This document shows positions 2,302-38,300 of a stretch of 43,754 bases of DNA, piece after piece (position 1 is the stretch's first letter; every line of letters starts with the position of its first letter). The translations under genes were made by a program, and so were the position numbers. The DNA comes from a virus (lineage: Duplodnaviria; Heunggongvirae; Uroviricota; Caudoviricetes). Location: IMG/VR virus record IMGVR_UViG_2778261353_000008. One strand, written 5' to 3'. Under the pieces are notes generated by a model. The model was not told the origin of the DNA. It was given only the letters and a program-made list of their open reading frames with translations, and searched no databases.

Positions 2302-2855
2302 GCAGCTTCCCGACGGGCAAGAATCCTTGAGCCGAACGCCATCAACTCTCCACGATCAACGGTCGTAAAGTGGCAGTGTGTACGGGGGTATGGGTGCCAG
2401 ATAATGAGCATCGAGCCTTTATTATTTCCACTGACGGGTTTCTCAGTGAGTGGGTTAATAAATGCCAGTCGTCCTGCCGTGATGAATCTGACCTCACTGG
2501 CGGTTTGTATCGCTTCATGAAACCATCCGACAGATGTGTCAGCAGGCAATAACATTACACATCCCACACTACTGAATTTGTTTTCAGTGGCTGCCTTTTT
2601 CACAAAAGGGGAAATATTGCTGTATGGTGGATTCAACCAGACATAACCAGAGGCATATCCCATTGCTTCAGGCCATGAAGTGGTTAATGTGTTCTGCTCC
2701 TGTGAGATAAAAAGCCGACATAGTCGGTTTTTTTCGCTGGCGGCAGCATCAAGTTGAAAAACGAACTCTGCATTAAGCGCAGCAAAAATCTCTGGTGGTG
2801 TGCGCCAGCTGTCGCGATGTTCGGCAGGAGTATTGCTTCCGGTGAAATCAGTCAT
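2298..2855 (-). CDS. Phage DNA N6-adenine methyltransferase (Dam family), copy 1
   Basis: 185 aa; WRTPPEIF motif and NPPYS (DPPY-type catalytic motif), GNNKGSMLIIW; lies where lambda carries orf61 in the early-left operon. Confidence 0.8.
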   Translation of the reverse strand: MTDFTGSNTPAEHRDSWRTPPEIFAALNAEFVFQLDAAASEKNRLCRLFISQEQNTLTTSWPEAMGYASGYVWLNPPYSNISPFVKKAATENKFSSVGCVMLLPADTSVGWFHEAIQTASEVRFITAGRLAFINPLTEKPVSGNNKGSMLIIWHPYPRTHCHFTTVDRGELMAFGSRILARREAA

Positions 2856-3015
2856 ACAGCCCCCGTTTATTATTTATCGCCTCAGCCAGCCGCTGTGCTT
2901 TCAGTGGATTTCTGATAACAGAAAGGCCGGGAAATACCCAGCCTCGCTTTGTAACGGAGTAGATGAAAGTGATCGCGCCTACCCGGATATTATCGTGAGG
3001 ATGCTTCATCGCCAT
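2848..3015 (-). CDS. Lambda orf60a-like small protein (55 aa)
   Basis: Hand-translated [55 protein letters not shown]; matches the lambda orf60a N-terminus as I recall it but ends earlier where the methyltransferase begins. Confidence 0.4.
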
Positions 3016-3686
3016 TGCTCCCCAAATACAAAACCAATTTCAGCCAGTGCCACGTCCATTTTTTCGATGAACTCCGGCACCATCTCGTCAAAATTCGCCA
3101 TGTACTTTTCATTCCGCTCAATCACGACATAATGCAGGCCTTCACGCTTCATACGCGGGTCATAGTTGGCAAAGTACCAGGCATCTTTTCGCGTCACCCA
3201 CATGCTGTACTGCACCTGGGCCATGTAAGCCGATTTTATGGCCTCGAAACCACCGAGCCGGAACTTCATGAAATCCCGGGAGGTAAACGGGCATTTCAGT
3301 TCAAGGCCGTTGCCGTCACTGCATAAACCATCGGGAGAGCAGGCGGTGCGCATACTTTCGTCGCGATAGATGATCGGGGATTCAGTAACATTCACGCCGG
3401 AAGTGAATTCAAACAGGGTTCTGGCGTCGTTCTCGTACTGTTTTCCCCAGGCCAGCGCCTTAGCATTAACTTCCGGAGCCACACCGGTGCAAACCTCAGC
3501 CAGCAGGGTGTGGAAGTAGGACATTTTCATGTCAGGCCACTTTTTTCCGGAGCGGGGTTTTGCTATCACATTGTGAACTTCTGAAGCGGTGATGACGCCG
3601 AGCCGTAATTTGTGCCACGCATCATCCCCCTGTTCGACAGCTCTCACGTCGATTCCGGTACGCTGCAGGATAATGTCCGGTGTCAT
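3006..3686 (-). CDS. exo: Lambda exonuclease (Red alpha)
   Basis: 226 aa, essentially identical to lambda Exo ([43 protein letters not shown]...). Confidence 0.97.
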
Positions 3687-4468
3687 GCAGCCACCTTCTG
3701 CTCAGTGGCTTTCTGTTTCAGGAATCCAAGAGCTTTCACTGCTTCGGCCTGTGTCAGTTCTGACGATGCGCGAATGTCGCGGCGAAATATCTGGGAACAG
3801 AGCGGCAATAAGTCGTCATCCCATGTTTTATCCAGGGCAATCAGCAGAGTGTTAATCTCCTGCATGGTTTCATCGTTAACCGGAGTGATGTCGCGTTCCG
3901 GCTGACGTTCTGCAGTGTATGCGGTATTTTCGACAATGCGCTCGGCTTCATCCTTGTCATAGATACCAGCAAATCCGAAGGCCAGACGGGCACACTGAAT
4001 CATGGCTTTATGTCGTAACATCCGTTTGGGATGCGACTGCCACGGTCCGGTGATTTCTCTGCCTTCGCGGGTTTTGAATGGTTCGCGGCGGCATTCATCC
4101 ATCCACTCGGTAACGCAGATCGGATGATTGCGGTCCTTGCGGTAAATCCGGCATGTGCAGGATTCATTGTCCTGCTCAAAGTCCATACCATCAAACTGCT
4201 GGTTTTCATTGATGATGCGGGACCAGCCATCAACGCCCACCACCGGAACGATGCCATTCTGCTTATCAGGAAAGGCGTAAATTTCTTTCGTCCATGGATT
4301 AAGGCCGTACTGGTTGGCAACGATCAGTAATGCGATGAACTGCGCATCGCTGGCATCACCTTTAAATGCCGTCTGGCGAAGAGTGGTGATCAGTTCCTGT
4401 GGGTCGACAGAATCCATGCCGACACGTTCAGCCAGCTTCCCAGCCAGCGTTGCGAGTGCTGTACTCAT
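3683..4468 (-). CDS. bet: Recombination protein Bet (Red beta)
   Basis: 261 aa, matches lambda Bet ([59 protein letters not shown]...). Confidence 0.97.
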
Positions 4469-4473
4469 CCGTT

Positions 4474-4890
4474 TTATACCTCTGAATCAATATCAACCTG
4501 GTGGTGAGCAATGGTTTCAACCATGTACCGGATGTGTTCTGCCATGCGCTCCTGAAACTCAACATCGTCATCAAACGCACGGGTAATGGCTTTTTTGCTG
4601 GCCCCGTGGCGTTGTAAATGATCGATGCAGAGTGATTCAAACAGGTGCTGGGGCAGACCTTTTTCCATGTCGTCTGCCAGTTCTGCCTCTTTCTCTTCAC
4701 GGGCGATCTGCTGGTAGTGACGCGTCCAGCTCTGAGCCTCAAGACGATCCTGAATGTAATAAGCGTTCATGGCTGAACTCCTGAAATAGCTGTGAAAATA
4801 TCGCCCGCGAAATGCCGGGCTGATTAGGAAAACAGGAAAGGGGGTTAGTGAATGCTTTTGCTTGATCTCAGTTTCAGTATTAATATCCAT
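4474..4890 (-). CDS. gam: Host nuclease inhibitor Gam
   Basis: 138 aa, matches lambda Gam long form ([55 protein letters not shown]...). Confidence 0.96.
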
Positions 4891-4988
4891 TTTTTATAAG
4901 CGTCGACGGCCTCACGAAACATCTTTTCATCGCCAATAAAAGTGGCGATAGTGAATTTAGTCTGGATAGCCATAAGTGTTTGATCCAT
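4845..4988 (-). CDS. kil: Kil (FtsZ inhibitor), 47 aa
   Basis: ORF 4845..5114 trimmed to internal Met [47 protein letters not shown], matching lambda Kil. Confidence 0.85.
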
Positions 4989-5121
4989 TTTTTGGGACTC
5001 CTGGCTGATTAAGTATGTCGATAAGGCGTTTCCATCCGTCACGTAATTTACGGGTGATTCGTTCAAGTAAAGATTCGGAAGGGCAGCCAGCAACAGGCCA
5101 CCCTGCAATGGCATATTGCAT
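4957..5121 (-). CDS. cIII: CIII (FtsH inhibitor stabilising CII), 54 aa
   Basis: Hand-translated from reverse complement: [54 protein letters not shown]; overlaps kil as in lambda; absent from ORF track (<60 aa). Confidence 0.88.
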   Translation of the reverse strand: MQYAIAGWPVAGCPSESLLERITRKLRDGWKRLIDILNQPGVPKNGSNTYGYPD

Positions 5122-5193
5122 GGTGTGCTCCTTATTTATACATAACGAAAAACGCCTCGAGTGAAGCGTTATTGGTATGCGGTAACGCCGCGC

Positions 5194-5562
5194 TCAGGCG
5201 GCTTTGATAGTCATATCATCTGAATCAAATATTCCTGATGTATCGATATCGGTAATTCTTATTCCTTCGCTACCATCCATTGGAGGCCATCCTTCCTGAC
5301 CATTTCCATCATTCCAGTCGAACTCACACACAACACCATATGCATTTAAGTCGCTTGAAATTGCTATAAGCAGAGCATGTTGCGCCAGCATGATTAATAC
5401 AGCATTTAATACAGAGCCGTGTTTATTGAGTCGGTATTCAGAGTCTGACCAGAAATTATTAATCTGGTGAAGTTTTTCCTCTGTCATTACGTCATGGTCG
5501 ATTTCAATTTCTATTGATGCTTTCCAGTCGTAATCAATGATGTATTTTTTGATGTTTGACAT
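5194..5562 (-). CDS. ea10: Ea10-like early protein (122 aa)
   Basis: Length and position (between cIII and ral) match lambda ea10; flanking DNA matches lambda sequence I recall. Confidence 0.8.
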   Translation of the reverse strand: MSNIKKYIIDYDWKASIEIEIDHDVMTEEKLHQINNFWSDSEYRLNKHGSVLNAVLIMLAQHALLIAISSDLNAYGVVCEFDWNDGNGQEGWPPMDGSEGIRITDIDTSGIFDSDDMTIKAA

Positions 5563-5724
5563 CTGTTCATATCCTCATAGATAAAAAATCGCCCTCACAC
5601 TGGAGGGCAAAGAAGATTTCCAATAATCAGAACAAGTCGGCTCCTGTTTAGTTACGAGCGACATTGCTCCGTGTATTCACTCGTTGGAATGAATACACAG
5701 TGCAGTGTTTATTCTGTTGTTAGT

Positions 5725-5753
5725 GCCAAAAATAAAGGCCGACTATGCGGCCT
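5725..5753 (-). terminator. Putative rho-independent terminator downstream of the membrane-protein cassette
   Basis: Minus-strand RNA would form AGGCCG/CGGCCT stem (6 bp, 6-nt loop) followed by UUAUUUUUGG; sits immediately 3' of ORF 5758..6207. Confidence 0.5.
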
Positions 5754-5757
5754 GAAA

Positions 5758-6207
5758 TTACTTAACCAATGATGCTGCATATTCGATAAGGTAAAGCTTT
5801 GGAGCCAGCAAAATTTTTAACCATGTCATATTGGTTACTGCACTAATAATAAAAATCCCCCACAGAGCCAAAACTCCAACTAATGGCATGATAAGAAGAT
5901 TAATATCACCTTTGCTATCCCAAACCATTGTCGGCCTGTATTTGGGATTTCCCTTCTCCCATGAATATCCTTCATCACTGATTTTACCTGTCTCAACTCT
6001 TCGACACTGCTTCTTCATAAACCAGAAAACCAGTGGGATTGTTAGAATGGCTATTAATGTTTTAATCAGACTGTCAACCATATTCCATAGCAGCAACTGA
6101 TGAACAACATCAGGAATCTGCGCCTGGCTGAATGAAACAGCCGTGTCTATTCCATTGCTGGCTTTTTGCAGTAGTTCTACGAGAATCTTGTTTGCTTGTT
6201 CTTCCAT
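5758..6207 (-). CDS. Hypothetical integral membrane protein (149 aa), cassette inserted between ea10 and ral
   Basis: Two strongly hydrophobic segments (LIKTLIAILTIPLVFWFM and LLIMPLVGVLALWGIFIISAV); AAGGGG RBS upstream of ATG; AT-rich; absent from lambda at this junction. Confidence 0.65.
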   Translation of the reverse strand: MEEQANKILVELLQKASNGIDTAVSFSQAQIPDVVHQLLLWNMVDSLIKTLIAILTIPLVFWFMKKQCRRVETGKISDEGYSWEKGNPKYRPTMVWDSKGDINLLIMPLVGVLALWGIFIISAVTNMTWLKILLAPKLYLIEYAASLVK

Positions 6208-6266
6208 ATATCCCCTTGATTGTAATAAGCATGAAATTATTTACGGCCAAAAAATAAAGGCCACCA

Positions 6267-6467
6267 TCAGGCAGCCTTGTTGTTCTGTTTACCAAGTTCT
6301 CTGGCAATCATTGCCGTCGTTCGTATTGCCCATTTATCGACATATTTCCCATCTTCCATTACAGGAAACATTTCTTCAGACTTAACCATGCATTCCGATT
6401 GCAGCTTGCATCCATTGCATCGCTTGAATTGTCCACACCATTGATTTTTATCAATAGTCGTAGTCAT
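6267..6467 (-). CDS. ral: Restriction alleviation protein Ral
   Basis: 66 aa, matches lambda Ral (MTTTIDKNQWCGQFKRCNGCKLQSECMVK.EEMFPVMEDGKYVDKWAIRTTAMIARELGKQNNKAA). Confidence 0.95.
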   Translation of the reverse strand: MTTTIDKNQWCGQFKRCNGCKLQSECMVKSEEMFPVMEDGKYVDKWAIRTTAMIARELGKQNNKAA

Positions 6468-6595
6468 ACGGATAGTCCTGGTATTGTTCCATCACATCCT
6501 GAGGATGCTCTTCGAACTCTTCAAATTCTTCTTCCATATATCACCTCAAATAAGTGGTTTGCTGCCTAATTTTATTTTCTGGCGACCAACACAAG

Positions 6596-6868
6596 TCACC
6601 TTGCTGTCAGTTGTTTTGATTTCCTGTAGCCTGCCGCGTAAAGAGCTACATTTGGAAGACAAGTTGAGCCTTCATATTTTCTGGTCAACGTTGTCAGTGT
6701 TATTACTTCTGCTCTCATTGCTGGTTTGCGCTTGCATTGCAAGACCACTCGAGAGGGGGTTGGTCTGTGTAGCTTGTCGGAGCTAATCGCCTCCTGACTT
6801 TGCAGGTTTGCGCGACGAGCTCTACGACGAGAAGCTGAGGTGCCTTTAAATTCTGTTTTTCTGGACAT
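6596..6868 (-). CDS. N: Antitermination protein N (P22 gp24-like, non-lambda)
   Basis: ORF 6596..6952 trimmed to Met preceded by GGGAGG RBS; arginine-rich motif SASRRRARRA near N-terminus; C-terminus LPNVALYAAGYRKSKQLTAR resembles P22 gp24 C-terminus; sits between ral and pL. Confidence 0.8.
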   Translation of the reverse strand: MSRKTEFKGTSASRRRARRANLQSQEAISSDKLHRPTPSRVVLQCKRKPAMRAEVITLTTLTRKYEGSTCLPNVALYAAGYRKSKQLTAR

Positions 6869-6966
6869 AGATTCCTCCCGAATAAACTTTGGTGATGCAA
6901 TCTCGAAGCTCCTCCTGAGACGGTTGCTTCGGCATTGCATCCCACAGCTCATGTGGTTGGGTGATC

Positions 6967-7013
6967 TGGCTTTTCAGCCACGTAGTCGAGAGTTCGACGT
7001 TGTTTAAAGAGCC
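6967..7013 (-). promoter_or_regulatory. Putative nutL (boxA-like GGCUCUUUAA followed by boxB-like hairpin UGGCUGAAAAGCCA)
   Basis: Seen on reverse complement between pL candidate and N start; boxB loop GAAAA as in lambda; stem differs from nutR by compensatory changes (GGC/GCC vs CGC/GCG). Confidence 0.5.
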
Positions 7014-7051
7014 TGCCAGTCTGTTCCGTTTGGCTTCCAGCGTCCTGCTGA

Positions 7052-7087
7052 CGGTTAAATAGTACGATATGTACTTTATTGGGTCAA
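7052..7087 (-). promoter_or_regulatory. Putative pL with operator OL1
   Basis: On minus strand: -35 TTGACC, 17-nt spacer, -10 TACTAT; palindrome AGTACATATCGTACT (7061..7075) overlaps spacer and -10 and closely matches a site in the pR candidate. Confidence 0.5.
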
Positions 7088-7272
7088 TACGATTTGTTCT
7101 AAAATGGGGTGATTTTTTATAACACTTTGTATTTAATAGTGTTGTTTTTTAGCGTGGGTGTATCGCCTCGGCGATGTAAGGAGAGATCAGAATTGCGTGG
7201 TTTAGTGAGTTGTATCTATTTATTTTTCAATAAATACATTTGGTTATGTGTCTTTAGATGGGGGCGTGAGGC

Positions 7273-7300
7273 AAAGAAAACCCGGCGCTGAGGCCGGGTG
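7273..7300 (-). terminator. t_imm-like rho-independent terminator ending the cI operon
   Basis: CCCGGC..GCCGGG stem followed on the minus-strand RNA by UUUUCUUUG; surrounding ~120 nt match the lambda sequence I recall between OL and rexB. Confidence 0.6.
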
Positions 7301-7308
7301 GGGTTTTG

Positions 7309-7479
7309 TTATTGGTGCATTTGGCAGACTGTAGTATCAGGTCCATAAGCCAAAGTAAAAACAGGCTTGTTGATCAATCCGTTGTTCTTTAATGATTGAA
7401 TCATTTTACCTTGCTCGCTAACTTTTTGCTTGCTAAGTATTTCTGCCACTTGCTGTGTCAGTGATTTGTCTTTGCTCAT
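7309..7479 (-). CDS. Small ORF (56 aa) translationally coupled to the upstream peptidase-like gene
   Basis: Hand-translated MSKDKSLTQQVAEILSKQKVSEQGKMIQSLKNNGLINKPVFTLAYGPDTTVCQMHQ; its ATG directly follows the TAA of the 300-aa gene (TAAATG); ends 9 nt before the t_imm hairpin; below ORF-track cut-off. Confidence 0.45.
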   Translation of the reverse strand: MSKDKSLTQQVAEILSKQKVSEQGKMIQSLKNNGLINKPVFTLAYGPDTTVCQMHQ

Positions 7480-8382
7480 TTATGACTCACTTTGTTCTGA
7501 GAAGGGGAATGAAGACAGAACAAGAACCTGTCGATTTGTCTTATACATGTATTCATTAATGACGTTGTGCAGATTTTTTAACGCCATGCTAAAATCTTTG
7601 TCGTATGTAAAGTCTTCTACTTTAATTCTTAAGTCATTGATAAGAGTATTTATTCCTATCGTTCTTCCGTGAGAATGCCACTTTCCGTTGTCACTAAGAG
7701 CGGTAGCGATCATTTTAGCTCTCGCTTCTTTTTCCCTCTTGGAAACTAGCTTTCCTCGTTTTGTGTTACCTTGATGAACCGTCCACTCTCTGAATTTATA
7801 CTCTACAAGCCACTTCTTAAGCAAGTCTATTGATAGCTCTCTGGCTTGCTCGTATCTCCTTAAGTGCGCAAGATCTAACTGACTAAGCATCATTAGTTCA
7901 GCTTGGGTAATGGTTCCTTCTCTGGATTTAGTAATCATTTCTTCAACTTTATCAAGGTATCCCAAAGCAGGAACCCATTTACCGTCAGAGGATTGCACTT
8001 GAGGGTCAATGGGGCCTAATGAAGAAGCATAGTTCATGTAAATTTTATCTCCAGACATACACCATATTGTGCCTGCCGACATGGCCATATCTGGAATGAT
8101 AAAATATACCTCTTGATAGAAATGCCTTGTAATTTCTACCATTTTTTCCACAGACTCAACAGAGCCACCATTTGTATTGAGTATAATAACTAGAAATCTA
8201 TTGGTACGACTGTTAGCCATCTCCCCAATAGCCTCAAGTTTTGGTTGGTAAACTTCTTTTGACCATGGAAAGATACCACCGTAGTACGCTATGACGTCGC
8301 AGCTTGGGAAAAAGTTATTTTTAAATTGCTCTAACTGCCAAGAAATGTATGTTTCTAGTGTTGAATCAAGATTTTGGCTCAT
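7480..8382 (-). CDS. Clp-fold serine-peptidase-like protein (S49/SDH-family-like) in the rexAB slot
   Basis: 300 aa; motifs VIILNTNGGSVESVEKMVEI, IIPDMAMSAGT (putative Ser nucleophile), SSLGPIDPQ; immediately downstream of cI on the same strand; AT-rich; family assignment is from motif memory only. Confidence 0.6.
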   Translation of the reverse strand: MSQNLDSTLETYISWQLEQFKNNFFPSCDVIAYYGGIFPWSKEVYQPKLEAIGEMANSRTNRFLVIILNTNGGSVESVEKMVEITRHFYQEVYFIIPDMAMSAGTIWCMSGDKIYMNYASSLGPIDPQVQSSDGKWVPALGYLDKVEEMITKSREGTITQAELMMLSQLDLAHLRRYEQARELSIDLLKKWLVEYKFREWTVHQGNTKRGKLVSKREKEARAKMIATALSDNGKWHSHGRTIGINTLINDLRIKVEDFTYDKDFSMALKNLHNVINEYMYKTNRQVLVLSSFPFSEQSES

Positions 8383-8454
8383 GTGATACCTTGCTATATC
8401 AACAATTTACAATAACATGTTGCACTATCGGTTTTTTATTAATCACAATTGGAA

Positions 8455-9114
8455 TTACCCAAACGTCTCTTCAGGCCACTGACTAGCGATAACTTTCCCC
8501 ACAACGGAACAACTCTCATTGCATGGGATCATTGGGTATTGTGGGTTTAGTGGCTGTAGAAACACCTGACCGCTATCCCTGATCAGTTTCTTGAAGGTAA
8601 ATTCATCACCACCAAGTCTGGCTATGCAGAAATCGCCGGGCTCAACAGCTTGCTCAGGGTCAACCAGAATTAACATCCCGTCAGGAAAACTGGGTTTGGA
8701 ACCTGTTGGTGCGGTCATTGAGTTACCTTCAACCTCAAGCCAGAATGCAGAGTCACTGGCTTTTTTGGTTGTGCTTACCAATCTCTCCGCATCGCCTTTG
8801 GTAAAGGTTCTGAGTTCTGGAGAGAACATCCCAGCCTGAACATGAGAAAATACAGGGTACTCATATTGTTTTTTAACTGGGGCCGATGAGTATTCGCCAA
8901 CAGGTGAAAATGTCCCGTCGTGGTTGAATGATATGTTATCAATACCAAGGTATTTAAACACCAAACCAATATCACTAAGAGATGGATGACGAGATCCGCG
9001 CAACCAGTGTCCAATCCCACCCTGCGTCATACCTAGCTCTTCGGCTAACTTCTCTTGAGTTATGCCGAGCTCTTTCATTCTGGATCTAGCCAGTTCATAC
9101 CATTTCATTTTCAT
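8455..9114 (-). CDS. cI: CI-type prophage repressor (HTH-XRE N-terminus, LexA/S24-like C-terminal domain)
   Basis: ORF 8455..9156 trimmed to Met with AAGGA RBS ([37 protein letters not shown]...); C-terminal [13 protein letters not shown]...[23 protein letters not shown] resembles P22 C2 / lambda CI autocleavage domain; divergent from cro across an operator region. Confidence 0.88.
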
Positions 9115-9169
9115 GTCCTTATTATTACGCTCTGTACTGGAACCATCCATGCACAATGTGTATTTTTGC

Positions 9170-9198
9170 TTGTATTTGGAAAGTACATATTGTATTTT
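9170..9198 (+). promoter_or_regulatory. Putative pR with operator OR1
   Basis: -35 TTGTAT, 17-nt spacer, -10 TATTTT, GGAGG RBS and cro ATG ~27 nt downstream; operator AGTACATATTGTATT (9182..9196) nearly identical to the OL site. Confidence 0.5.
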
Positions 9199-9224
9199 TT
9201 ATTCGAGGTTACTATGGAGGGCAT

Positions 9225-9440
9225 ATGAGCAACCTACGAAAATATCGAGAGTCACTGAATATCTCTCAAACAACACTTGCTAAGGCAGTTGGATGCACAC
9301 AGGGAGCTATCGGACATTGGGAATCTGGTCGTCGCTTCCCAGACCTTAAAACATGCCGTGCTCTTGTTGCGTGCCTAAATAAGTTAGGCGCAAAAGTAAG
9401 TCTTGATGACGTGTTCCCGCCGGAACACAAAGCCGCTTAA
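9225..9440 (+). CDS. cro: Cro-like repressor (HTH-XRE), 71 aa
   Basis: ORF 9156..9440 trimmed to Met MSNLRKYRESLNISQTTLAKAVGCTQGAIGHWESGRRFPDLKTCRALVACLN... preceded by GGAGG; divergent from cI. Confidence 0.8.
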   Translation: MSNLRKYRESLNISQTTLAKAVGCTQGAIGHWESGRRFPDLKTCRALVACLNKLGAKVSLDDVFPPEHKAA

Positions 9441-9451
9441 TAAGCGGAGCC

Positions 9452-9497
9452 GCTCTTTGTAACAACGGACATTCGTCCTACGTCGCTGAAAAGCGAG
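9452..9497 (+). promoter_or_regulatory. Putative nutR (boxA CGCTCTTTG, boxB-like hairpin TCGCTGAAAAGCGA)
   Basis: Located between cro and cII; boxA matches the CGCTCTT(T)A consensus; boxB loop GAAAA as in lambda. Confidence 0.5.
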
Positions 9498-9581
9498 TCC
9501 CAAGATATCTGACCAACTAAGGCCATATGCGTTTCCACGCATACCTTTCAACTAACTATTCACTATTGGAAATCTTAAGAA

Positions 9582-9878
9582 ATGGAAAGAACAAGTTACA
9601 GCAAACTATCACAACGTGACGTTGATCGCGCAGAAACAGATTTACTTATCAATCTGTCAACTATTACCCAGCGCGGTCTGGCAAAGATGATTGGCTGTCA
9701 TGAATCGAAGATAAGCAGAACGGACTGGCGGTTTATTGCTTCGGTCTTGTGTGCTTTCGGAATGGCATCAGACATCAGTCCAATTAGCAGGGCTTTTAAG
9801 TATGCGCTTGATGGAATCACAAAAAAAAAATCCCCGGTGGCCGCCGGGGACTCTAAGCAAATTGATATGCAATTCTGA
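9582..9878 (+). CDS. cII: CII-like transcriptional activator
   Basis: 98 aa; HTH region (GLAKMIGCHESKISRTDWRF) and C-terminus KKKSPVAAGDSKQIDMQF parallel lambda CII (KKRPAATERSEQIQMEF). Confidence 0.75.
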   Translation: MERTSYSKLSQRDVDRAETDLLINLSTITQRGLAKMIGCHESKISRTDWRFIASVLCAFGMASDISPISRAFKYALDGITKKKSPVAAGDSKQIDMQF

Positions 9879-9910
9879 GGGAATTACTGGATCAATCCAC
9901 AGGAGTCATT

Positions 9911-10810
9911 ATGACAAATACAGCAAAAATACTCAACTTCGGCAGAGGTAACTTTTCCGGACAGGAGCGTAATGTGGCAGATCTCGATGATGGTTACGCC
10001 AGACTATCAAATATGCTGCTTGAGGCTTATTCGGGCGCAGATCTGACCAAGCGACAGTTTAAAGTGCTGCTTGCCATTCTGCGTAAAACCTATGGGTGGA
10101 ATAAACCAATGGACAGAATCACCGATTCTCAACTTAGCGAGATTACAAAGTTACCTGTCAAACGGTGCAATGAAGCCAAGTTAGAACTCGTCAGAATGAA
10201 TATTATCAAGCAGCAAGGCGGCATGTTTGGACCAAATAAAAACATCTCAGAATGGTGTATCCCTCAAAACGAGGGAAAATCCCCTAAAACGAGGGATAAA
10301 ACATCCCTCAAATTGGGGGATTGCTATCCCTCAAAACAGGGGGACACAAAAGACACTATTACAAAAGAAAAAAGAAAAGATTATTCGTCCGAGAATTCTG
10401 GCAAATCCTCTGACCAGCCAGAAAACGATCTTTCTGTGGTTAAACCGGATGCTGCAATTCAGAGCGGCAGCAAGTGGGGAACAGCAGAAGACCTGACCGC
10501 CGCAGAGTGGATGTTTGACATGGTGAAGACCATCGCGCCATCAGCCAGAAAACCGAATTTTGCTGGGTGGGCTAACGATATCCGCCTGATGCGTGAACGT
10601 GACGGACGTAACCACCGCGATATGTGTGTGCTTTTCCGCTGGGCCTGCCAGGACAACTTCTGGTCCGGTAACGTGCTGAGCCCGGCCAAACTCCGCGATA
10701 AGTGGACCCAACTCGAAATCAACCGTAACAAGCAACAGGCAGTCGTGACAGCCAGCAAACCAAAACTCGACCTGACAAACACAGACTGGATTTACGGGGT
10801 GGATCTATGA
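9911..10810 (+). CDS. O: Replication initiator O
   Basis: 299 aa, near-identical to lambda O (MTNTAKILNFGRGNF.GQERNVADLDDGYARLSNMLLEAYSGADLTKRQFKVLLAILRKTYGWNKPMDRITDSQL...). Confidence 0.97.
   Translation: MTNTAKILNFGRGNFSGQERNVADLDDGYARLSNMLLEAYSGADLTKRQFKVLLAILRKTYGWNKPMDRITDSQLSEITKLPVKRCNEAKLELVRMNIIKQQGGMFGPNKNISEWCIPQNEGKSPKTRDKTSLKLGDCYPSKQGDTKDTITKEKRKDYSSENSGKSSDQPENDLSVVKPDAAIQSGSKWGTAEDLTAAEWMFDMVKTIAPSARKPNFAGWANDIRLMRERDGRNHRDMCVLFRWACQDNFWSGNVLSPAKLRDKWTQLEINRNKQQAVVTASKPKLDLTNTDWIYGVDL
10258..10385 (+). repeat. ori-lambda: four iterons (TCCCTCAAAACGAGGGA-type) plus adjacent A/T-rich region, inside O
   Basis: Direct reading: ccctcaaaacgaggga / tcccctaaaacgaggga / tccctcaaattggggga / tccctcaaaacaggggga followed by aaaagaaaaaagaaaaga. 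Confidence 0.85.
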
Positions 10811-11508
10811 AAAACATCGCCGCACAGATGGTTAACTTTGACCGTGAGCAGATGCGTCGGATCGCCAACAACATGCCGGAACAGTACGACGAAAAGCCAC
10901 AGGTACAGCAGGTAGCGCAGATCATCAACGGTGTGTTCAGCCAGTTACTGGCAACTTTCCCGGCGAGTCTGGCTAACCGTGACCAGAACGAACTGAACGA
11001 AATCCGCCGCCAGTGGGTTCTGGCTTTCCGGGAAAACGGGATCACCACAATGGAACAGGTTAACGCAGGAATGCGCGTAGCCCGTCGGCAGAATCGACCA
11101 TTTCTGCCATCACCCGGGCAGTTTGTTGCATGGTGCCGGGAAGAAGCATCCGTTATCGCCGGACTGCCAAACGTCAGCGAGCTGGTTGATATGGTTTACG
11201 AGTATTGCCGGAAGCGAGGCCTGTATCCGGATGCGGAGTCTTATCCGTGGAAATCAAACGCGCACTACTGGCTGGTTACCAACCTGTATCAGAACATGCG
11301 GGCCAATGCGCTTACTGATGCGGAATTACGGCGCAAGGCTGCCGATGAACTGACCTGTATGACAGCGCGAATTAACCGTGGTGAGACGATACCTGAACCA
11401 GTAAAACAACTTCCTGTTATGGGCGGTAGACCTCTAAATCGTGCACAGGCTCTGGCGAAGATCGCAGAAATTAAAGCTAAGTTCGGACTGAAAGGAGCAA
11501 GTGTATGA
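10807..11508 (+). CDS. P: Replication protein P (DnaB helicase loader)
   Basis: 233 aa matching lambda P (MKNIAAQMVNFDREQMRRIANNMPEQYDEKPQVQQVAQIINGVFSQLLATFPASLANRDQNE...). Confidence 0.96.
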   Translation: MKNIAAQMVNFDREQMRRIANNMPEQYDEKPQVQQVAQIINGVFSQLLATFPASLANRDQNELNEIRRQWVLAFRENGITTMEQVNAGMRVARRQNRPFLPSPGQFVAWCREEASVIAGLPNVSELVDMVYEYCRKRGLYPDAESYPWKSNAHYWLVTNLYQNMRANALTDAELRRKAADELTCMTARINRGETIPEPVKQLPVMGGRPLNRAQALAKIAEIKAKFGLKGASV

Positions 11509-11795
11509 CGGGCAAAGAGGCAATTATTCATTACCTGGGGACGCATAATAGCTTCTGTGCGCCGGACGTTGCCGCGCTAACAGGCGCAACAGTAACCAGC
11601 ATAAATCAGGCCGCGGCTAAAATGGCACGGGCAGGTCTTCTGGTTATCGAAGGTAAGGTCTGGCGAACGGTGTATTACCGGTTTGCTACCAGGGAAGAAC
11701 GGGAAGGAAAGATGAGCACGAACCTGATTTTTAAGGAGTGTCGCCAGAGTGCCGCGATGAAACGGGTATTGGCGGTATATGGAGTTAAAAGATGA
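11505..11795 (+). CDS. ren: Ren (Rex exclusion-resistance protein)
   Basis: 96 aa matching lambda Ren (MTGKEAIIHYLGTHNSFCAPDVAALTGATVTSINQAAAKMARAGLLVIEGKVWRTVYYRFATREEREGKMST...). Confidence 0.93.
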   Translation: MTGKEAIIHYLGTHNSFCAPDVAALTGATVTSINQAAAKMARAGLLVIEGKVWRTVYYRFATREEREGKMSTNLIFKECRQSAAMKRVLAVYGVKR

Positions 11796-11820
11796 CCATC
11801 TACATTACTGAGCTAATAAC

Positions 11821-11853
11821 AGGCCTGCTGGTAATCGCAGGCCTTTTTATTTG
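11821..11853 (+). terminator. tR2-like rho-independent terminator between ren and ninB
   Basis: AGGCCTGC / GCAGGCCT stem, 8-nt loop, then TTTTTATTTG. Confidence 0.7.
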
Positions 11854-11868
11854 GGGGAGAGGGAAGTC

Positions 11869-12309
11869 ATGAAAAAACTAACCTTTGAAATTCGATCTCC
11901 AGCACATCAGCAAAACGCTATTCACGCAGTACAGCAAATCCTTCCAGACCCAACCAAACCAATCGTAGTAACCATTCAGGAACGCAACCGCAGCTTAGAC
12001 CAAAACAGGAAGCTATGGGCCTGCTTAGGTGACGTCTCTCGTCAGGTTGAATGGCATGGTCGCTGGCTGGATGCAGAAAGCTGGAAGTGTGTGTTTACCG
12101 CAGCATTAAAGCAGCAGGATGTTGTTCCTAACCTTGCCGGGAATGGCTTTGTGGTAATAGGCCAGTCAACCAGCAGGATGCGTGTAGGCGAATTTGCGGA
12201 GCTATTAGAGCTTATACAGGCATTCGGTACAGAGCGTGGCGTTAAGTGGTCAGACGAAGCGAGACTGGCTCTGGAGTGGAAAGCGAGATGGGGAGATCGG
12301 GCTGCATGA
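11869..12309 (+). CDS. ninB: NinB (Orf recombination mediator)
   Basis: ORF 11851..12309 trimmed to MKKLTFEIRSPAHQQNAIHAVQQILPDPTKPIVVTIQERNRSLDQNRKLWACLGD..., matching lambda NinB. Confidence 0.93.
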   Translation: MKKLTFEIRSPAHQQNAIHAVQQILPDPTKPIVVTIQERNRSLDQNRKLWACLGDVSRQVEWHGRWLDAESWKCVFTAALKQQDVVPNLAGNGFVVIGQSTSRMRVGEFAELLELIQAFGTERGVKWSDEARLALEWKARWGDRAA

Positions 12310-12833
12310 CTATCAAATCAAATACGCCAGCACACGACAAGGACTGCTGGCAAACGCCGCTTTGGCTTTTTGATGCACTGGATATTGAGTTTGGATTCTG
12401 GCTGGATTCGGCAGCGAGCGACAAAAATGCTCTGTGTGCTCACTGGCTAACTGAGGCCGACGACGCGCTCAATTCTGAGTGGGTAAGCCACGGTGCAATC
12501 TGGAATAACCCACCGTACAGCAATATCAGGCCGTGGGTGGAAAAAGCTGCTGAGCAGTGCATACAACAGCGACAGACGGTAGTTATGCTTGTGCCAGAGG
12601 ATATGTCAGTCGGATGGTTCAGCAAGGCTCTGGAGAGTGTCGACGAAGTTCGCATTATCACTGATGGACGGATTAATTTTATCGAACCATCGACAGGGCT
12701 GGAGAAGAAGGGAAACAGCAAAGGCTCCATGCTGCTGATTTGGCGACCGTTCATCAGTCCTCGACGGATGTTTACTACCGTATCCAAAGCGGCATTGATG
12801 GCGATCGGGCAGGGCGTCAGGAGGGCGGCATGA
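12306..12833 (+). CDS. Phage DNA N6-adenine methyltransferase (Dam family), copy 2
   Basis: ORF 12246..12833 trimmed to [25 protein letters not shown]...; NPPYS motif and [11 protein letters not shown]; start overlaps ninB stop (ATGA); occupies the lambda ninC/ninD slot. Confidence 0.8.
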
Positions 12834-35375: not shown

Positions 35376-38300
35376 ATGGGTAAAGGCAGCAGTAAGGGGC
35401 ATACTCCGCGCGAAGCGAAGGACAACCTGAAGTCCACGCAGTTGCTGAGTGTGATCGATGCCATCAGCGAAGGGCCGGTTGAAGGTCCGGTGGATGGATT
35501 AAAAAGCGTGCTGCTGAACAGTACGCCAGTGCTGGACAGTGAGGGGAATACCAATATCTCCGGCGTCACGGTGGTGTTCCGGGCCGGTGAGCAGGAGCAG
35601 ACACCGCCGGAGGGATTTGAATCCTCCGGCTCCGAGACGGTGCTGGGTACGGAAGTGAAATACGACACGCCGATCACCCGGACCATCACGTCGGCAAACA
35701 TTGACCGACTGCGTTTTACCTTCGGCGTGCAGGCACTGGTGGAAACCACCTCAAAGGGGGACAGGAATCCGTCGGAAGTCCGCCTGCTGGTTCAGATCCA
35801 GCGTAATGGTGGCTGGGTGACGGAAAAAGACATCACCATTAAGGGCAAAACCACCTCGCAGTATCTGGCCTCGGTGGTGGTGGGTAACCTGCCGCCGCGC
35901 CCGTTCAATATCCGGATGCGCAGGATGACGCCGGACAGCACCACAGACCAGCTGCAGAACAAAACGCTCTGGTCGTCATACACCGAAATCATCGATGTGA
36001 AACAGGGCTACCCGAACACGGCACTGGTCGGCGTGCAGGTGGATTCGGAGCAGTTCGGCAGCCAGCAGGTGAGCCGTAATTATCATCTGCGCGGGCGCAT
36101 TCTGCAGGTGCCGTCGAGCTATAACCCGCAGACGCGGCAATACAGCGGTATCTGGGACGGAACGTTTAAGCCGGCATACAGCAACAACATGGCCTGGTGT
36201 CTGTGGGATATGCTGACCCATCCGCGCTACGGCATGGGGAAACGTCTTGGTGCGGCGGATGTGGACAAATGGGCGCTGTATGTCATCGGCCAGCATTGCG
36301 ATCAGTCGGTGCCGGACGGTTTTGGCGGCACGGAGCCGCGCATCACCTGTAATGCGTACCTGACCACACAGCGCAAGGCGTGGGATGTGCTCAGTGATTT
36401 CTGCTCTGCGATGCGCTGTATGCCGGTATGGAACGGGCAGACGCTGACGTTCGTGCAGGACCGACCGTCGGATAAGGTGTGGACCTATAACCGCAGTAAT
36501 GTGGTGATGCCGGATGATGGTGCGCCGTTCCGCTACAGCTTCAGCGCCCTGAAGGACCGCCATAATGCCGTTGAGGTGAACTGGATTGACCCGAATAACG
36601 GCTGGGAGACGGCGACAGAGCTTGTGGAGGACACGCAGGCCATTGCCCGTTACGGTCGTAACGTCACGAAGATGGATGCTTTTGGCTGTACCAGCCGGGG
36701 GCAGGCACACCGCGCCGGGCTGTGGCTGATTAAAACAGAACTGCTGGAAACGCAGACCGTGGACTTCAGCGTGGGTGCCGAAGGGCTTCGCCATGTACCG
36801 GGCGATGTCATTGAAATCTGCGATGATGACTATGCCGGTATCCGCACCGGCGGGCGCGTGCTGGCGGTAAACAGCCAGACCCGGACGCTGACGCTCGACC
36901 GTGAAATCACGCTGCCATCTTCCGGCACCACGCTGATAAGCCTGGTTGACGGGCAGGGGAGTCCGGTCAGCGTGGAGGTTCAGTCCGTCACCGACGGCGT
37001 GAAGGTGAAAGTGAGCCGTGTTCCTGACGGCGTTGCTGAATACAGCGTATGGGGGCTGAAGCTGCCGACGCTGCGCCAGCGCCTGTTCCGCTGCGTGAGT
37101 ATCCGTGAGAACGACGACGGCACGTATGCCATCACCGCCGTGCAGCATGTACCGGAAAAAGAGGCCATCGTGGATAACGGGGCGCACTTTGACGGCGACC
37201 AGAGCGGCACGGTAAATGGTGTCACGCCGCCAGCGGTGCAGCACCTGACCGCAGAAGTCACCGCAGACAGCGGGGAATACCAGGTGCTGGCCCGCTGGGA
37301 CACGCCGAAGGTGGTGAAGGGCGTGAGCTTCCTGCTTCGCCTGACCGTGGCAGCGGATGACGGCCGTGAGCGGCTGGTCAGCACGGCCCGGACGACGGAA
37401 ACCACTTACCGCTTCACACAACTGGCTCTGGGGAACTACAGGCTGACAGTCCGGGCAGTAAATGCGTGGGGGCAGCAGGGCGATCCGGCGTCGGTATCGT
37501 TCCGGATTGCCGCACCGGCAGCGCCGTCGCGGATTGAGCTGACGCCGGGCTATTTTCAGATAACCGCCACGCCGCATCTTGCGGTTTATGACCCGACGGT
37601 ACAGTTTGAGTTCTGGTTCTCGGAAAAACGGATTGCGGATATCAGGCAGGTTGAAACCAGCGCGCGTTATCTTGGTACGGCACTGTACTGGATAGCCGCC
37701 AGTATCAATATCAAACCGGGCCATGATTATTATTTTTACGTTCGCAGTGTGAACACCGTTGGCAAATCGGCATTCGTGGAGGCTGTCGGTCAGCCGAGTG
37801 ATGATGCATCAGGCTATCTGGATTTTTTCAAAGGAGAAATCGGGAAAACACATCTGGCCCAGGAGCTGTGGACGCAGATTGATAACGGTCAGCTTGCGCC
37901 GGACCTGGCTGAAATCAGGACGTCCATTACGAATGTCAGCAATGAAATCACGCAGACCGTCAATAAAAAACTGGAAAATCAGAGTGCGGCAATCCAGCAG
38001 ATACAGAAAGTTCAGGTTGATACAAATAATAACCTGAACAGCATGTGGGCCGTGAAACTGCAGCAGATGCAGGACGGACGCCTTTATATTGCGGGTATCG
38101 GTGCCGGTATTGAGAATACGCCAGCAGGAATGCAGAGTCAGGTGCTGCTGGCGGCAGACAGGATTGCGATGATTAATCCTGCGAATGGCAACACAAAGCC
38201 GATGTTTGTTGGTCAGGGCGATCAGATATTTATGAATGAAGTGTTCCTGAAATATCTGACGGCTCCCACCATTACCAGCGGCGGTAATCCTCCGGCATTT

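Follow-up and report, generated by a model that had tools for sequence, protein, structure and literature searches.

What kind of control region does a lambda-like prophage carry when its immunity genes are not those of lambda, and would that region still be expected to act as a genetic switch? The question is raised by positions 6596-9878 of a 43,754-nt stretch of Caudoviricetes DNA (IMG/VR record IMGVR_UViG_2778261353_000008; the whole stretch is hereafter called the window), where the genes for the antiterminator N, the repressor cI, cro and cII are found. We consider it very probable that this interval is a VT2-Sakai-type early-control region that was recombined into a lambda-like prophage and that works as a standard lambdoid switch. 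Promoter use, binding and immunity are predicted here from sequence identities, motif positions, statistics and conservation, which the analysis itself supplies.

The four regulatory genes are listed below with their coordinates, strand and product.

6596-6868, minus strand: N antiterminator, 90 aa, beginning MSRKTEFKGTSASRRRARRANL; Pfam N_peptide PF25694, E=1e-31
8455-9114, minus strand: cI repressor, 217-219 aa, start at 9108 or 9114; Pfam HTH_3 and Peptidase_S24 (E=1e-28)
9225-9440, plus strand: cro, 71 aa; Pfam HTH_3
9582-9878, plus strand: cII, 98 aa; Pfam Phage_CII PF05269, E=7e-31

Their products match those of VT2-Sakai and phage 1717 with an identity of 98.9% for N, 99.5% for cI (1717, over 217 aa), 100% for cro and 91-94% for cII, and BLAST against phage records returned the immunity type of the Stx phages 1717, Nil2, 2851, YYZ-2008, Stx1/Stx2-II Morioka and VT2-Sakai. 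The DNA is 94-97% identical to relatives of the VT2-Sakai type across 6532-7299 and 8455-9918. The repressor DNA-binding domain, Cro and the operator sequences are all shared with the VT2-Sakai-type immunity group, and the arrangement is that of a lambdoid CI/Cro switch, with cI and cro divergent around a tripartite right operator (OR) and a second tripartite operator, the left one (OL), at the leftward promoter pL. Comparison with lambda divides the region into the following segments.

2853-5746: lambda, 98%; orf60a/exo to ea10
5747-6236: non-lambda; 149-aa open reading frame (ORF)
6237-6562: lambda, 97%; ral
6563-7180: non-lambda; N, nutL, pL/OL
7181-7299, minus strand: lambda, 90% (lambda 35708-35825); segment from downstream of rexB
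7300-8458: non-lambda; cargo
8459-8865: lambda, 94%; cI C-terminal domain
8866-9816: non-lambda; cI N-terminal domain, OR, cro, nutR and most of cII
9817-12225: lambda, 97.6%; oop, O, P, ren

An earlier sequence-only reading had described a non-lambda control module in a lambda backbone. This description is borne out, the flanks from exo to ral and from O and P to ren being lambda-like, and the module itself turns out to be a patchwork. The lambda piece at 7181-7299 and a two-gene cargo at 7309-8382, both inside the interval, had gone unmentioned. The characterisation of N, cI, cro and cII as P22-like or unrelated to lambda is right for N, which belongs to the P22/H-19B family, and loosely right for cro and cII; it fails for cI, whose C-terminal domain is lambda's.

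Such a prophage could also be a decayed remnant in which the module is present by descent, the switch is dead and the motifs are relics. In the near-identical UTAK-3 copy, cII and the ORF beside N are marked as frameshifted by NCBI, and the VT2-Sakai reference record itself has a split cI, both of which would fit decay. In the window, however, N, cI, cro and cII are intact ORFs that are 91-100% identical to those of functional Stx phages, the operators and nut sites conform to the consensus of the family, and on the flanks O, P, ren and the genes for recombination are likewise intact. We consider decay highly improbable and prefer the reading of a VT2-Sakai-type switch that works.

The operators support this reading. 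The VT2-Sa operators reportedly go back to a publication dated 2000. Six of them, each of 17 bp, are tabulated in PMC10742460 (Table S1), and each has its counterpart in the window.

7060-7076: OL1, TAGTACGATATGTACTT, identical to the published VT2-Sa OL1; leave-one-out rank 3
7085-7101: OL2, CAATACGATTTGTTCTA, one mismatch to the published VT2-Sa OL2; leave-one-out rank 6
7118-7134: OL3, TATAACACTTTGTATTT, two mismatches to the published VT2-Sa OL3; leave-one-out rank 4
9123-9139: OR3, TATTACGCTCTGTACTG, identical to the published VT2-Sa OR3; leave-one-out rank 8
9149-9165: OR2, ATGCACAATGTGTATTT, identical to the published VT2-Sa OR2; leave-one-out rank 8
9181-9197: OR1, AAGTACATATTGTATTT, identical to the published VT2-Sa OR1; leave-one-out rank 1

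The sequence-only reading had proposed a single 15-bp site on each side. Positions 7061-7075 read AGTACGATATGTACT on the plus strand (reverse complement AGTACATATCGTACT), and 9182-9196 read AGTACATATTGTATT, in agreement with the former site at 13 of 15 positions. Both sites exist and form the cores of the published OL1 and OR1, but each side has three operators and not one. A search with the symmetrised 15-mer and up to three mismatches gave 26 matches against 11.3 +/- 3.05 in shuffled sequences, a number that was reached in none of 100 shuffles. Six of these matches cluster in the two control regions of about 95 bp, and the four additional ones are exactly OL2, OL3, OR2 and OR3, with about 0.07 expected there by chance. 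A weight matrix built from any five operators ranks the left-out sixth in the top 8 of 43,737 positions, and with the full six-site matrix the six operators are the six best matches in the 43.7-kb window. They share the consensus tAgTAC-n5-TGTAyTt, a 17-bp pseudo-palindrome. Among 23 distinct homoimmune variants drawn from 53 loci, 21 of 102 operator columns are variable compared with 40 of the 101 remaining intergenic columns (Fisher p = 0.0036), and the changes are concentrated in the spacers between operators. Placement of OR2 nearer to OR1 (9157-9173 or 9161-9177) was rejected, since neither position has a matrix score above 2.5, whereas the published OR2 has 12.0.

About 100 bp beyond OL3, at 7232-7248, the lambda-derived segment contains a further sequence that resembles an operator, AAATACATTTGGTTATG, the seventh and a weaker one (matrix score 12.3); it and the OL3 region constitute an imperfect inverted repeat (7119-7135 / 7231-7247). 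A similar putative operator, WTACRAWWTGTAT, has been described in phage epsilon34, whose repressor shares about 50% identity at its N-terminus with the repressors of L, VT2-Sa and Nil2 (PMC2629481).

The promoters expected next to these operators are as follows.

7059-7087, minus strand: candidate pL, TTGACC (7082-7087), 17 nt, TACTAT (7059-7064); 9/12 consensus positions, found by the promoter scan too
9170-9198, plus strand: candidate rightward promoter pR, TTGTAT (9170-9175), 17 nt, TATTTT (9193-9198)
9122-9150, minus strand: putative repressor promoter PRM, from sequence and analogy with lambda PRM, -35 ATGGAT (9150-9145), 17 nt, -10 TAATAA (9127-9122)

The hexamers and 17-nt spacers of pL and pR are located as the sequence-only reading had placed them. 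OL1 and OR1 overlap the -10 hexamer and spacer of candidate pL and pR, respectively, and OL2 abuts and overlaps the pL -35 hexamer. The operator spacing differs from that of lambda, and therefore the pR -35 hexamer, whose TTG is kept among the variants listed, falls between OR1 and OR2. An alternative pR with TACTAT at 9210-9215 was rejected: the spacer to the nearest TTGTAT is 14 nt, and from the sequence its transcript would be without the cro Shine-Dalgarno. As in lambda, the -35 hexamer of the predicted PRM abuts OR2 and its -10 hexamer is covered by OR3, and by the same analogy the cI mRNA may begin near the AUG at 9114.

Several points weigh against a standard switch. The centre-to-centre spacing is asymmetric: OL has distances of 25 and 33 bp and OR of 32 and 26 bp, whereas lambda has 24/20 and 24/23 bp; the 32 bp between OR1 and OR2 and the 33 bp between OL2 and OL3 are thus unusual beside the 20-24 bp of lambda, and because of this spacing lambda-style cooperativity between OR1 and OR2 is not assured. 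Of the six operators, OR2 and OR3 match the matrix least well, and candidate pR reaches no more than 7 of the 12 sigma-70 consensus positions and has no entry in the promoter scan. The VT2-Sa operators were assayed with lambda CI only and not with the cognate repressor (PMC10742460). PRM and the cI start codon are themselves inferred. The AUG at 9108 has a better Shine-Dalgarno than that at 9114, and the 231-aa cI start annotated by NCBI in UTAK-3 is unlikely because OR2 and OR3 would then fall inside the gene. For annotation, our results fix the operator, promoter and nut coordinates of the prophage and flag this UTAK-3 start. The closer pair at OR is OR2-OR3 and not OR1-OR2, although the repressor bears lambda's own cooperativity domain.

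The repressor combines a helix-turn-helix (HTH) domain of the VT2-Sa type at its N-terminus with the C-terminal S24 domain for autocleavage and oligomerisation encoded by the lambda DNA at 8459-8865. Its identity of 72% with lambda cI over 212 residues is due to the C-terminal domain, which is entirely that of lambda; over the stretch aligned, this domain is identical to the lambda one, including the AG cleavage-site context VQAGMFSPE. The match of Cro to its P22 counterpart is marginal, and none of significance was obtained with that of lambda. By local alignment with the N-terminal domain of cI, Cro is a paralogue of the HTH domain of its own repressor, with TQGAIGHW in the recognition-helix region versus TQGGIGHW in cI, and these near-identical helices fit CI and Cro reading the same sites.

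Since both the DNA-binding domain of cI and the operators differ from those of lambda, heteroimmunity to lambda is the default expectation from sequence. The module might nevertheless cross-react with lambda, by way of mixed oligomers or of weak binding to operators, and so not be truly heteroimmune. The lambda-derived C-terminal domain and some operator positions common to both phages (xAxxAC half-sites) would allow this, and PMC10742460 cites Fattah et al. 2000 for VT2-Sa and lambda being cross-immune, a second-hand statement. The same paper gives an apparent dissociation constant of lambda CI of 3.7-6.4 uM on VT2-Sa operators versus 0.2-3 uM on lambda's own sites (PMC10742460). In our judgement, however, micromolar binding to isolated oligonucleotides is weak and maybe near non-specific, the DNA-binding domains align weakly (local score 74 over 53 residues), and the operators differ at most positions. 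Cross-reaction is in our view unlikely.

We propose the following circuit. A LexA-like CI would bind three operators per side, shut pL and pR and autoregulate PRM, while Cro, its small HTH_3 paralogue, would bind the sites of CI for lytic growth. RecA would be expected to inactivate CI, as the lambda-identical S24 domain suggests, and CII would activate the establishment promoter and favour lysogeny. The arginine-rich N-terminus of N would bind the boxB hairpins of nutL and nutR and, together with boxB, boxA and the host Nus factors, let RNA polymerase read through the terminators downstream of both sites.

The N start was chosen by homology to the start of H-19B N and by its Shine-Dalgarno, GGGAGG, 7 nt upstream of the ATG at 6868; a longer 118-aa ORF from 6952 is probably not used. 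The protein shares 42% identity with H-19B N and 40% with P22 gp24, aligns weakly with lambda N, and has the arginine-rich motif SRRRARRA. Its two putative target sites are built alike.

6967-7013, minus strand: nutL, with boxA GGCUCUUUAAACAA (7013-7000), spacer hairpin GUCGA-acuc-UCGAC (6998-6985), linker CUACG and boxB UGGCU-GAAA-AGCCA (6980-6967)
9451-9496, plus strand: nutR, with boxA CGCUCUUUGUAACAA (9451-9465), spacer hairpin GGAC-auuc-GUCC (9467-9478), linker UACG and boxB UCGCU-GAAA-AGCGA (9483-9496)

The isolated boxB of nutL folds with -7.1 kcal/mol (z = -3.8) and that of nutR with -6.5 kcal/mol (z = -2.9). Of the 16 hairpins of boxB format in the window, only these two have the GCUCUUU core upstream (-31, -32). 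A boxA and a hairpin in both leaders, with stems differing by one flipped pair (G-C versus C-G), had been recognised from the sequence alone; the GAAAA loop on a 4-bp stem that went with them is replaced in the fold by a 14-nt boxB with a 5-bp stem closed by U-A and a 4-nt GNRA loop, GAAA. The loop is thus a length variant of the GNRA-like pentaloops of lambda (GAAAA/GAAGA) and P22 (GACAA). In the seven nut variants compared, pairing of the boxB stem is complete (100%), and two of its five pairs show double changes. The spacer-hairpin stems of nutL, nutR and H-19B nutL are unrelated in sequence, and within each type only the loop varies. An alternative pairing of boxA with boxB was rejected. 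The minimum-energy fold of 70-78-nt contexts pairs boxA (CGCU/GGCU...UUU) with the 3' arm of boxB, with z of only -1.45 and -0.8. The G/C difference between nutL and nutR at boxA position 1 had seemed to co-vary with the boxB stem, but other loci have G, U or A there while the boxB arm stays AGCC.

The type of N and the type of boxB loop co-vary across about 180 loci. The motif KGT(A/S)ASRRRARRANL pairs with UGGCU-GAAA-AGCCA at nutL in 88 loci, where the nutL boxB is invariant, and UCGCU-GAAA-AGCGA is found at nutR in all 92 loci with N of the VT2-Sa clade in which the hairpin was located; the scan for the nutR hairpin found none in four further loci of this clade. In the branch of phage 75/02 (N 84% identical; different cI and cro) the nutL loop is GCAA in eight loci and GAAA in one, an alternation that fits a GNRA tetraloop closed by U-A. 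The arginine-rich motifs of H-19B and P22 pair with GCGCU-GACAA-AGCGC in more than 80 loci. We tentatively suggest, with more reserve than conviction, that the VT2-Sakai N clade uses a genuine 4-nt GNRA tetraloop boxB at both nut sites (GAAA; GCAA in the 75/02 branch), as opposed to the 5-nt loop with one extruded base of lambda, P22 and H-19B. No description of such a boxB for the VT2-Sa N clade was found in the searchable literature, which excludes papers in subscription journals on H-19B and VT2-Sa. The one mildly new point of our analysis is the strict pairing of this clade with a tetraloop boxB (GAAA/GCAA). If it is true and uncharacterised, the pair would be a ready-made specificity variant for testing the role of the extruded base, e.g., in NusA dependence or in discrimination between co-resident prophages.

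The DNA from 9450 onward is 95.6% identical to an H-19B segment that includes nutR/tR1, a region that serves experimentally as an N-suppressible Rho terminator and in whose nutR two hairpins are mentioned (PMC3526286). A perfect 6-bp palindrome, CCGCTT-AAT-AAGCGG (9433-9447), spans the cro stop just upstream of the nutR boxA, and every variant of the nutR region that was listed keeps its stem. Recombination of the N-nutL unit is independent of that of the cI/cro/operator unit, as seen in Shigella phage 75/02 (L088, 828-2574) and in loci L174-L181; in 75/02 the nut architecture is shared and the repressor, Cro and intergenic region are completely different. Some loci with identical N carry different OL sequences. 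A contig scan for distant N relatives yielded five loci and added little.

At the right junction, cII is of the H-19B type, 94% identical to the cII of H-19B and 1717 and 32% identical to lambda CII. Its 3' end is lambda DNA from 9817, which runs into an oop-like terminator (9854-9827) and O; an oop-like promoter was also found by the scan. From its sequence, TTGT-N6-TTGC on the minus strand (9614-9601) is a possible CII box.

The cargo fills a slot of 1.16 kb that is bounded by the lambda-like terminator segment and the stop codon of cI, and it consists of two genes.

7480-8382, minus strand: SDH/ClpP-fold serine protease-like gene, 300 aa; Pfam SDH_protease PF01972, E=1.6e-10
7309-7479, minus strand: second cargo gene, 56 aa

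The products fall into phrog_11747 (300 aa) and phrog_28875 (56 aa), both of unknown function. A PADLOC search for defence families matched neither gene, and none of 50,697 phage records contains a close homologue of the pair, the best identity being 26-30%. The position of the pair suggests co-transcription with cI in the lysogen, and a terminator-like hairpin with a T-run in the lambda-derived segment (7299-7280, minus strand) would, judged by its sequence, end the cI-cargo transcript. We regard the pair as a candidate prophage defence or exclusion module. Among 62 loci that share the anchors equivalent to window positions 7299 and 8459 (including L008-L087, L185 and L186), the rexAB slot is occupied by no fewer than 15 different cassettes, 0.6-1.6 kb in length, and the annotated cargos in E. 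coli genomes include DUF1828, the BstA C-terminal domain, an NYN domain and HicA/HicB. The slot is a cargo hot spot adjoining the repressor gene, and with so varied a set of genes in place of rexAB between N and cI, it is a natural place to seek prophage-encoded defence genes.

In the left arm, a 149-aa ORF with hydrophobic stretches (5758-6207, minus strand; phrog_3054, function unknown) lies between the lambda-like ea10 and ral and gave no match in a Pfam search; lambda has only about 180 bp between these genes, and the ORF is inserted there in the window. An Rfam scan of 4500-12500 returned nothing beyond the lambda cIII thermoregulator (RF01804, 5076-5134, minus strand, 88.5 bits), which is consistent with a lambda-derived left arm; Rfam has no curated family for nut sites.

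Compared with known systems, the module and its setting in a lambda backbone are already known and represent one of the commonest immunity types of E. coli. Some match to the module occurs in 1,927 of 5,426 complete E. coli genomes, and the whole 3.3-kb interval, in which the cargo stands together with the VT2-Sa-type module, in only seven of them (the best three, UTAK-3, UTAK-18 and SM107, at 99.8-99.9%; UTAK-3 at 99.9%). With lambda, the window shares gene order and logic, three 17-bp operators per side, flanks of 97-98% identity from exo to ral and from O and P to ren, and the retained segment from downstream of rexB; it differs in the cI DNA-binding domain, the Cro fold family, the operator sequence and spacing, the N arginine-rich motif, the boxB loop length and the cargo that replaces rexAB. 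The N family is common to the H-19B, 933W and HK97-type N-nut systems, and the C-terminal LPNVALYAAGYRKSKQLTAR is identical in H-19B N. The H-19B nutR is homologous to that of the window, with a shared spacer hairpin (GGACAUUCGUCC), UACG linker and UCGCU/AGCGA stem, whereas the boxB loop is GACAA at both H-19B nut sites and GAAA in the window, the arginine-rich motif is RSRRRERLKAK in H-19B and ASRRRARRANL in the window, and the degenerate nutR boxA of H-19B (CGCUAUUUU) contrasts with CGCUCUUU. With VT2-Sakai (Sp5) and its homoimmune relatives, the window shares the six operators, apart from one base in OL2 and two in OL3, and the nutL and nutR sequences; VT2-Sa, however, has an HK022-like O, a DnaB-like P and orf22 between N and cI, where the window has the O and P of lambda and the SDH-like protease with the 56-aa protein. 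The same combination of a lambda-like phage with VT2-Sa-type immunity is found in 2G7b, PhiR11_1 and E212, of which 2G7b is arranged as exo-bet-gam-kil-ea10-ral, N (98.9%), cargo, cI, cro, cII and O-P-ren, and in all three the cargo between N and cI differs from that of the window.

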